A program made the position numbers. Below are positions 9,001 through 10,544 of a stretch of DNA of 10,544 nt, piece after piece (positions within the stretch are counted from its first letter, which is position 1; the number at the start of each line of letters is the position of its first letter). Source of the DNA: a virus (taxonomy: Duplodnaviria; Heunggongvirae; Uroviricota; Caudoviricetes); IMG/VR virus record IMGVR_UViG_3300029841_000319, positions 1-10,544 of that record; one strand, 5' to 3'.

Positions 9001-10544
9001 CCGCCACCCTTGGGGGAATAACACCGGCGCAGTGGCTGATGGAGGAATACAGGCGGGGAAAGGCGGCAGGATTTATCAAGTAATACCAGCGCGATAGCGC
9101 ATTTTTTTACGTCTCAATGATTACCTGGTGGGTAATAAAATATTCTAAAATCTATTGATTTCGTGTCTTATGTGGTTTTTAATTACCTCAGAGGTAAATC
9201 ATGAGAAAACAGATACAGGCTCTTGGTCGACTCAAAACAGGCCAGATGAACAAAACAGAATCTGCGTATTGCCAGCACCTTGAGCAGCGTAAACGTGCAG
9301 GGGAAATCGCTTGGTATCGATTCGAGGGTATCAAGCTGCGGTTAGCTGACAACACGTTCTATACGCCCGATTTTGCTGTGATGCTCGCTACCGGCGAGAT
9401 GGAACTGCACGAAGTGAAAGGTTTCTGGACCGACGACGCCAGGGTGAAAACCAAAGTCGCCGCAGATCAATATCCGTTCCGAATCATCGGGGTAACTGTT
9501 AAGCCAAAGAAAGCAGGTGGTGGCTGGAAAATCGAAGAGTTCTGAATCGACGATCTTTTTAGTTATCAATGTAATCAATAAGTTATGTGGATAAGCGAGG
9601 ATAAAGATGGAAAGTAATATCAAAGGGTTAGTTGCCGCCGGGCATGAGATGGCTTCGGAACTGAAAGCAGAATGTGGTGCCGTTGATATGCGCAGTGTGG
9701 CAAAGCTGATCAGCGATTTGGCAACGCAACTGGAAGTGCAACTGGTGCGTGCTAATGCGCTGGCAGCGGAGAATGCGGTAATGCTCGAAACTATTGAAGC
9801 CGTTCGCAGTGTTGCGGATAACTCCAGTGGAATTTCCGGATGGCATTTGAATGGCGATATCGCCACATGGGAAGAGATTCTTCCTGAAATTAACGATATC
9901 GAACCCCCAGCCACCGATGCTTTTCTGGCTGAAGTGAAGACTGAAGCACGCAAGGAGGGCGCTTACTTTGTGGCGAACAGAATGCTGGCTGCCTGGGAAG
10001 CTGGTTTTATTGATGATACTGCGAAGAACGCCGCGGATATTGCCCGGATGATTCTTACCTCTACTGAGTTTATGGCTAATGCGCCGGAAGGCGATTTTGA
10101 CCGCTCATTCTCTGATGGCGTTCTCGAAGATATCGCCGCCCAGCTTCGCAAAGGAGGCAACCAGTGAGCAAGATTGACTATCAGGCACTGCGTGAGGCGG
10201 CAGAGAAAGCAACGTGTGGCGAGTGGTCGCTCGAATATGGAGATGGCCGATTTGATGGTGATGATGCACTAATTCATCGTGAAGTTGCTGGATATATTCC
10301 CATTTGCAGAATTGAAGGAGCGCATCCAGAAAGCCGTTTCTATGAAGATTTCCAAATGGAGCAGCAGGCCAATGCTGAATTCATCGCCGCAGCCAATCCA
10401 GCTACCGTGCTGGCACTGCTGGATGAACGGGAAAGAAACCTGCAATACATCAAAAGCCGCGATCAGGAGAACGAGGATATTGCGCTAACGGTAGGGAAGC
10501 TGCGTGTTGAGCTGGAAGCCGCAGAGAACAACCTTATTGATAGT

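Follow-up and report, generated by a model that had tools for sequence, protein, structure and literature searches.

What keeps the genes behind the replication operon of a temperate phage quiet once a lysogen has been established, and can the immunity repressor do so directly from outside its own immunity region? This question is raised by a short intergenic module (positions 9089-9200) in the virus record IMGVR_UViG_3300029841_000319 of IMG/VR, of which positions 1 to 10,544 (10,544 nucleotides, the window from here on) were analyzed. The window represents the early region of a phiV10/epsilon15-type temperate podovirus (genus Uetakevirus) integrated in Escherichia coli. The genome of phiV10 is 97% identical to its right half, and the segment 8900-9700 is present in 530 of 5,426 complete E. 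coli genomes (~10%). A preliminary description of this DNA had placed two dyads around a promoter-like sequence within the module and had put the genes that follow under direct repressor control. Based on the analysis presented here, it seems likely that the module is a self-contained promoter cassette, gated by the Rep-type immunity repressor, that keeps the post-replication operon silent in the lysogen.

Layout and conservation of the module

A renewed reading of the sequence bears out the positions of both dyads and of the TTGATT-N17-TTTAAT that they bracket (table 1). The dyads lie 62 bp apart, start to start, and the centre of the distal one, dyad 1, is ~62 bp upstream of the predicted transcription start (~9190). 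The hexamers are separated by 17 nt, and the last two bases of TTTAAT are also the first two of the proximal dyad, dyad 2, which spans the end of the -10 hexamer, the predicted start and a Shine-Dalgarno sequence, AGAGG (9190-9194), ahead of the ATG at 9201. Relative to the predicted start, dyad 2 extends from about -8 to +9, and its centre and right half themselves make up the Shine-Dalgarno sequence. The same arrangement is found at the promoter PL, as had been claimed: the PL pair (6022/6084) is likewise spaced at 62 bp, and on the minus strand it presents a dyad, 18 nt, the -35 hexamer, 17 nt, and a -10 hexamer that overlaps the proximal dyad by 2 nt. The -35 context CTATTGACA is common to PL and the 9155 promoter, and a T-tract at PL occupies the position held here by the AAAATAT tract beside dyad 1, a possible UP-element or bendable segment.

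Such dyads are far more frequent in the window than expected by chance. Sites matching ATTACC-N5-GGTAAT with at most one mismatch occur four times (6084, 6796, 9120, 9182) versus 0.01 expected, a count that 0 of 200 shuffles reached, and sites with at most three mismatches occur 12 times versus 3.4 expected.

For comparison, early regions were gathered through the repressor protein, that is, independently of the dyads, and annotated phages were added. In 13 non-identical relatives, which represent at least 10 genera and have Rep proteins of 41-100% identity, the module is kept after the replication genes. These relatives comprise E. coli phage phiV10, Enterobacter phages BUCT554 and Tyrion, Salmonella phages SPN1S and epsilon15, a Klebsiella phage, and prophages of Superficieibacter, Erwinia, Pseudocitrobacter, Kluyvera, Citrobacter, and Scandinavium. 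All share one order: GCGC-N4-GCGC-(A/C/G)-T7, a dyad, AAAATA, CTATTGAnn, 17 nt, TTTAAT or TTAAAT running into a dyad with a GAGAGG centre, and ATG. Across the 13 relatives the half-sites of dyad 2 and dyad 1 carry 1.93 and 1.82 bits per position, the -10 hexamer 1.79, and both the terminator-like element and the -35 hexamer, which lies in CTATTGA(T/A)(T/A)(T/A) at a fixed distance to both dyads, 1.67. Lower values are seen for the centre of dyad 1 (0.54 bits per position) and for the first 25 nt past dyad 2, where the next gene begins (0.79). At the centre of dyad 2 the value is 1.3 bits, since these bases also form the ribosome-binding site.

Conservation is also evident at short range. Among 80 viral contigs with an identical Rep, 76 contain the module, in 59 distinct sequences, and every one of the 76 has the 62-bp spacing. 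Nine of the 10 central columns of the dyads vary versus three of the 24 half-site columns, and the half-sites are fixed except at their outermost positions and in one singleton change in dyad 2. In this set (L007-L086), the five central bases of dyad 1 (9126-9130) and the 10 nt upstream of it (9110-9119) are highly polymorphic, probably because a recombination junction falls here and the positions are neutral. All 35 records in which the 120-bp module was found are of the Uetakevirus type.

Two departures from the common layout are informative. In the Scandinavium prophage (L095), and in no other relative, the spacing is 61 bp, both at PL and at the post-replication promoter (9870/9931 and 13949/14010), a single case which hints that the spacing is matched to the repressor. 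In four other relatives a second layout occupies the same junction (L090 9521-9555, L092 12891-12925, L105 11280-11314, L108 8231-8265, in reverse-complemented loci): a near-consensus hexamer, TTGACA or TTGCAA, directly precedes two adjacent dyads spaced at 18 bp, after which a RuvC-like or DUF1064 gene begins with its start codon. The second layout is an independent sign of a Rep-controlled promoter at this junction. A further locus, L093, has one full dyad and one degenerate dyad.

Proposed repressor control and its alternatives

The presumed ligand of the dyads is encoded at 6157-6741. Its product matches the Rep protein of phage SPC32H (PDB 5D50; E = 4e-42, 42% identity). An N-terminal helix, NL(V/I)(N/S)RW, is conserved across 16 Rep homologs, with N36, L37, R40, and W41 invariant. 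Neither the recognition-helix residues nor the accompanying TTACC half-site change in any homolog found, down to 41% identity, and the invariant helix residues fit the unchanged operator half-site. According to papers that cite the structural work, SPC32H Rep consists of an N-terminal DNA-binding domain, a middle dimerization domain and a C-terminal tetramerization domain, binds palindromic DNA sites as a tetramer, forms octamers in crystals, and loses its activity through an antirepressor. Some Burkholderia loci have only the C-terminal part of Rep in common with this group; they lack ATTACC dyads, no other dyad obviously recurs in them, and they are uninformative.

Part of the module had been recognized before. 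The GenBank record of epsilon15 (AY150271.2) carries the entry "protein_bind: repressor, lysogeny" at 35906-35922, the ortholog of dyad 1, and in a blastn search the 120-bp module aligns to epsilon15 35875-35989, which contains this site. Other repressor sites annotated in epsilon15 are three OL sites and sites before the small terminase subunit gene, gp3, and the tailspike gene. In the phiV10 record a putative rho-independent terminator is annotated at the equivalent of 9089-9108 and nothing else of the module, and the SPC32H record has no annotation in the module region. Promoters were predicted and no operators were mapped in the paper on vB_EcoP_ZX5, a close relative. A literature search for the operator string returned nothing relevant, the primary SPC32H and epsilon15 papers being outside its reach.

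Direct control by the repressor, as put forward in the preliminary description, is supported by the match of the operators to those at PL and PR, the presence of a rep gene, the conserved module and the epsilon15 annotation. What does not stand is its extent as one gene and the two after it: the third gene leaves the window, and the corresponding stretch in phiV10 runs for ~4 kb to gp55. Nor is this the third operator-flanked promoter, as the site had been counted, given the conserved site with TTGATC at 7181-7219 and the 15 dyads of phiV10.

We propose that the weak terminator would end the replication operon and that a sigma-70-type promoter, TTGATT-17-TTTAAT, would restart rightward transcription behind it. 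Rep on dyad 2, which reaches from the end of the -10 hexamer across the start to the ribosome-binding site, would thereby exclude RNA polymerase, and Rep on dyad 1 would add cooperative binding, through the same tetramer or through interacting tetramers; at 62 bp, about six helical turns, the two dyads should therefore face the same side of the DNA. In the lysogen the resolvase-type nuclease, the Eae/Ead accessory genes and, in complete phages, the pre-terminase regulator gene would be silent, and upon inactivation of Rep the promoter would fire independently of read-through. We infer the binding of Rep at the two dyads, the activity and start site of the promoter, and bridging by a tetramer from the features described above.

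The terminator, which had been listed as possible and weak, appears to be both real and weak: the 33-nt stretch 9080-9112, which includes four outer pairs around a 4-bp GCGC hairpin, folds at -8.7 kcal/mol (z = -2.7), and the element is conserved as well as annotated in phiV10. A generic terminator scan did not call it at 9089-9108 because a 4-bp stem is too short for such a scan. A minus-strand promoter-like match between the dyads, AAGACA-16-TAGAAT (9169-9142), was rejected as it is not conserved in BUCT554 or SPN1S. A motif of the form ATGTGG(T/A)TT or ATTTGGTTT (AAACCAAAT on the opposite strand) recurs at 9170-9178, 6048-6056, 7203-7210, and 9585-9590. The first two copies fall in the spacers of the 9155-9183 promoter and of PL, respectively, and the third precedes the -35-like hexamer at 7214; the recurrence near promoters may be due to chance.

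Some observations weigh against the proposal. A generic sigma-70 scan did not call TTGATT-N17-TTTAAT because position 2 of the -10 hexamer is T. All relatives have this T in place of the near-universal A, and the promoter may therefore be intrinsically weak or activator-assisted. The predicted leader is only ~10 nt long and has the Shine-Dalgarno sequence at its 5' end, and with a terminator stem of only 4 bp, much of the transcription could come from the replication operon by read-through. Finally, the module is absent from four of the 80 contigs with an identical Rep (L025, L060, L062, and L085). Each shows either a deleted or fused replication region or a chimeric assembly. Since the four are likely to be defective prophages or artifacts, we do not count them as counter-examples.

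The absence of A at position 2 of the -10 hexamer, the silence of the promoter scan, the weak terminator and the very short leader would also suit a reading in which no promoter exists at all, Rep bound to the dyads acts as a roadblock that reinforces the terminator, and the downstream genes are expressed solely by read-through after Rep is removed. We consider this unlikely: it leaves aside the conserved CTATTGA at a fixed 17 nt from a -10-like hexamer in the geometry of PL, the near-consensus TTGACA/TTGCAA -35 hexamers of the second layout in four relatives, and the fact that one site would suffice for a roadblock.

Still less probable is that the sites serve mainly as distal anchors from which Rep loops over 2.3-3.1 kb to OR/OL to sharpen the immunity switch, in the manner of phage 186 or of lambda OL-OR, rather than for local control. 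The distances resemble the lambda OL-OR separation, high-quality sites stand at three clusters (~6022-6100, 6796-6860, and 9120-9198), and the tetramers and crystal octamers reported for the homologous protein in papers citing the structural work would be suited to such a role. Yet local repression, unlike looping, explains why dyad 2 lies over the -10 hexamer, the start and the ribosome-binding site and why the promoter elements are conserved, and similar dyads precede many other transcription units of phiV10. Looping could, however, coexist with local repression.

In lambdoid phages, Cro and CI share operators, and the dyads might analogously be targets mainly of the 76-aa Cro-like protein of the window (6896-7126; PHROG 35, "transcriptional repressor"), lowering early transcription in lytic growth, rather than of Rep. 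We hold this to be quite improbable, given that the Cro and the prophage repressor of telomere phages do not share all sites and that the epsilon15 annotation assigns the sites to the repressor; both Rep and the Cro-like protein could bind the dyads. That the dyads are inverted repeats which arose by chance in AT-rich intergenic DNA, a reading for which nothing beyond the AT-richness of the region speaks, is already refuted by the shuffle control and by conservation across genera, and its probability is negligible.

The proposal of a Rep-gated post-replication promoter can be extended, tentatively, to Uetakevirus-type phages as a group. Without antitermination, they might transcribe their genomes through a relay of Rep-gated promoters, each placed after a terminator, with a single tetramer clamping the two dyads at 62 bp so that a micro-loop wraps the promoter. 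We regard this extension as doubtful on present evidence, and clearly less probable than the local cassette itself. If there is such a relay, its stations would be PL, PR, the replication promoter, the post-replication promoter and the sites before late genes, and the post-replication promoter would be a checkpoint en route to the late regulator. If there is such a micro-loop, the strict 62-bp spacing, together with the 61 bp at both promoters of one relative, would reflect a loop geometry that co-evolved with the repressor.

Genes behind the predicted promoter and further predicted operator sites

Table 1. Features of the analyzed window (coordinates are window positions; a full stop in the strand column marks features given without a strand; assignments of function are predictions from sequence).
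Feature	Position	Strand	Basis or remark
Integrase gene	1-1251	+	
recT	3853-4761	-	
Exonuclease gene	4731-5552	-	
PL module: dyads 6084-6100 and 6022-6038; -35 TTGACA 6065-6060; -10 AATTAT 6042-6037	6022-6100	-	
Rep-type immunity repressor gene, presumed dyad ligand	6157-6741	-	match to SPC32H Rep, PDB 5D50
OR cluster between repressor and cro-like genes: 6796-6812 (1 mismatch), ~6814-6830 (degenerate), 6844-6860 (3 mismatches, in PR spacer)	6796-6860	.	
Cro-like protein gene, 76 aa	6896-7126	+	PHROG 35 "transcriptional repressor"
Further repressor site CGTACCTCAAAGGTAAT (7181-7197) with -35-like TTGATC (7214-7219)	7181-7219	+	predicted
Small gene	ends 7477	+	
DnaT-like initiator gene with internal iterons	7493-8326	+	
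Lambda-P-like protein gene	8289-9083	+	
Weak intrinsic-terminator-like element: GCGC-GATA-GCGC (9089-9100), A, T7 (9102-9108)	9089-9108	+	fold, conservation
Distal operator (dyad 1) ATTACCTGGTGGGTAAT, perfect 6-N5-6	9120-9136	.	0 mismatches to ATTACC-N5-GGTAAT
A-rich tract AAAATAT adjoining dyad 1	9137-9143	+	near-invariant across 13 relatives
Predicted -35 hexamer TTGATT, inside conserved CTATTGA	9155-9160	+	4/6 consensus match
Predicted -10 hexamer TTTAAT	9178-9183	+	5/6 match to TATAAT; T at position 2
Proximal operator (dyad 2) ATTACCTCAGAGGTAAA, mismatch at last base	9182-9198	.	1 mismatch to consensus
DUF1064 protein gene, first gene of unit	9201-9545	+	Pfam DUF1064, PHROG 190
eae-like gene, second of unit, function unknown	9607-10167	+	phiV10 gp46 annotated "eae-like"
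Ead/Ea22-like gene, third of unit, GTG start, continues past window end	10165-10544	+	sequence read

The first gene of the unit had been described as nuclease-like, and this assignment is upheld. Its product matches Pfam DUF1064 (E = 3.4e-7) and PHROG 190, "Holliday junction resolvase" (E = 4.9e-43), and has a faint similarity to T7 endonuclease I (E = 0.21); from these matches it is probably a resolvase-type nuclease acting on Holliday junctions. In Tyrion, epsilon15 and other relatives, a RuvC-like resolvase takes the place of the DUF1064 protein behind the same module. The joint of this exchange lies exactly at the ATG (window 9201; position 9269 of the Tyrion locus, L003; position 6988 of the epsilon15 locus, L005) and the module stays, so that on sequence grounds the exchange looks like the non-homologous replacement of one gene by another of the same function. 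In Pseudomonas phage F116, which has no Rep, the DUF1064 gene lies inside an operon, with neither an intergenic region nor dyads upstream of it.

The eae-like protein matches only PHROG families of unknown function, and in E. coli RefSeq annotations the gene beside DUF1064 is called an "ead/Ea22-like family protein." The gene order of phiV10 differs from that of the window at this point, with a small extra gene, gp47, between the eae-like and the Ead/Ea22-like genes. A terminator-like match inside the eae-like gene (9984-10005) was rejected: it is weak, it lies in coding sequence, and the number of such matches is that expected by chance. The counterpart operon in phiV10 consists of ~4 kb of tightly packed genes, without a strong terminator, up to gp55, a transcriptional regulator (PHROG 536) located just before the terminase genes. 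The gp55 gene is followed by a terminator, a pair of adjacent dyads and the gene for the small terminase subunit.

The operators of the module have counterparts elsewhere in the window and throughout phiV10. The predicted unit at 7181-7219 follows a terminator (7148-7167) and precedes the small gene and the replication genes, and its GGTAAT...GGTTGATCTTTTTT is kept in BUCT554, Tyrion, and SPN1S. A degenerate partner dyad, ATGACCGTAATCCCAAT, is found at 7241-7257 and is better preserved in BUCT554 and SPN1S. Just past the proximal dyad of PL there is an extra GTTACC half-site (6007-6014). Several relatives retain it, and it overlaps the ribosome-binding region that serves the first leftward gene (GAGGTAAC, minus strand). 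The phiV10 genome contains 15 dyads with at most two mismatches versus 1.2 expected, mostly intergenic and ahead of transcription units. They include those at 86-120, 3251, 20496, 20876, 24691, and 26869 (L006). The first of these is a pair of adjacent dyads that closely follows a terminator and stands right ahead of the ATG at 121, with which the small terminase subunit gene probably starts. Dyads also precede gp06 and the tail-fibre gene, and there are others in the divergent region of oac and the lysis genes. For ATTACCnnAAAGGTATA, which is conserved ahead of the integrase gene, a role as integrase arm site is a possible alternative, since epsilon15 has an annotated integrase site there.

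Within the DnaT-like initiator gene, at least five copies of CCC(A/G)AAAACGGGA recur at intervals of 18-24 bp (7747-7929), together with a 12-bp repeat. By analogy with the lambda O gene, these iteron-like repeats are probably the replication origin.

Comparison with known systems

The feature at 9120-9198 is a conserved and partly annotated property of a known phage group, and its mechanism would be conventional repression; it opens no new kind of biology. Of some interest are the possible relay in which a terminator is followed by a gated promoter, in place of antitermination, the invariant 62-bp geometry around the promoter, and the resolvase swap at the ATG. Immunity control would extend past the classical immunity region in a prophage family that is widespread in E. 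coli and Salmonella, in that the repressor is predicted to gate the post-replication operon directly, and probably most other transcription units as well. This bears on the prediction of which prophage genes are silent in lysogens and on the interpretation of induction by antirepressors. Being compact and tightly conserved, the cassette of repressor and promoter could serve as a reusable regulatory part.

The closest precedent is epsilon15, whose sites have the same 17-bp ATTACC-N5-GGTAAT consensus and whose repressor is of the same family. Its annotation, which is bioinformatic, differs in that it marks perfect dyads alone, and hence neither the proximal dyad nor the promoter nor the 62-bp pairing, and the gene behind its module encodes a RuvC-like resolvase instead of a DUF1064 protein. 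The Rep/Ant switch of SPC32H (PDB 5D50 and 5D4Z) is reportedly the subject of work by Kim and Ryu in 2013 and by Kim et al. in 2016. The repressors are homologous and the SPN1S/SPC32H genomes contain the same module before a DUF1064 gene; however, SPC32H Rep is only 42% identical to the protein described here, and the antirepressor gene lies outside the window.

As in lambda, operators overlap the early promoters on both sides of the repressor gene, and clusters that are kilobases apart could in principle loop. Whereas lambda crosses its terminators by N and Q antitermination, here each terminator would be followed by a new repressor-gated promoter, and whereas lambda operators stand in tandem, the pairs described here flank a promoter at 62 bp. 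The lambda repressor is removed by RecA-stimulated self-cleavage, in contrast to that of the relative SPC32H, which is inactivated by an antirepressor according to the citing papers mentioned above. The C1 operators of P1 and the gp71 sites of mycobacteriophage L5 are dispersed-operator prophage regulons, and phiV10 resembles these phages in that one immunity repressor would serve many scattered sites ahead of separate transcription units. The P1 and L5 sites are asymmetric whereas the dyads of this group are symmetric, the sites are fewer here, and the proteins are presumed to be unrelated.

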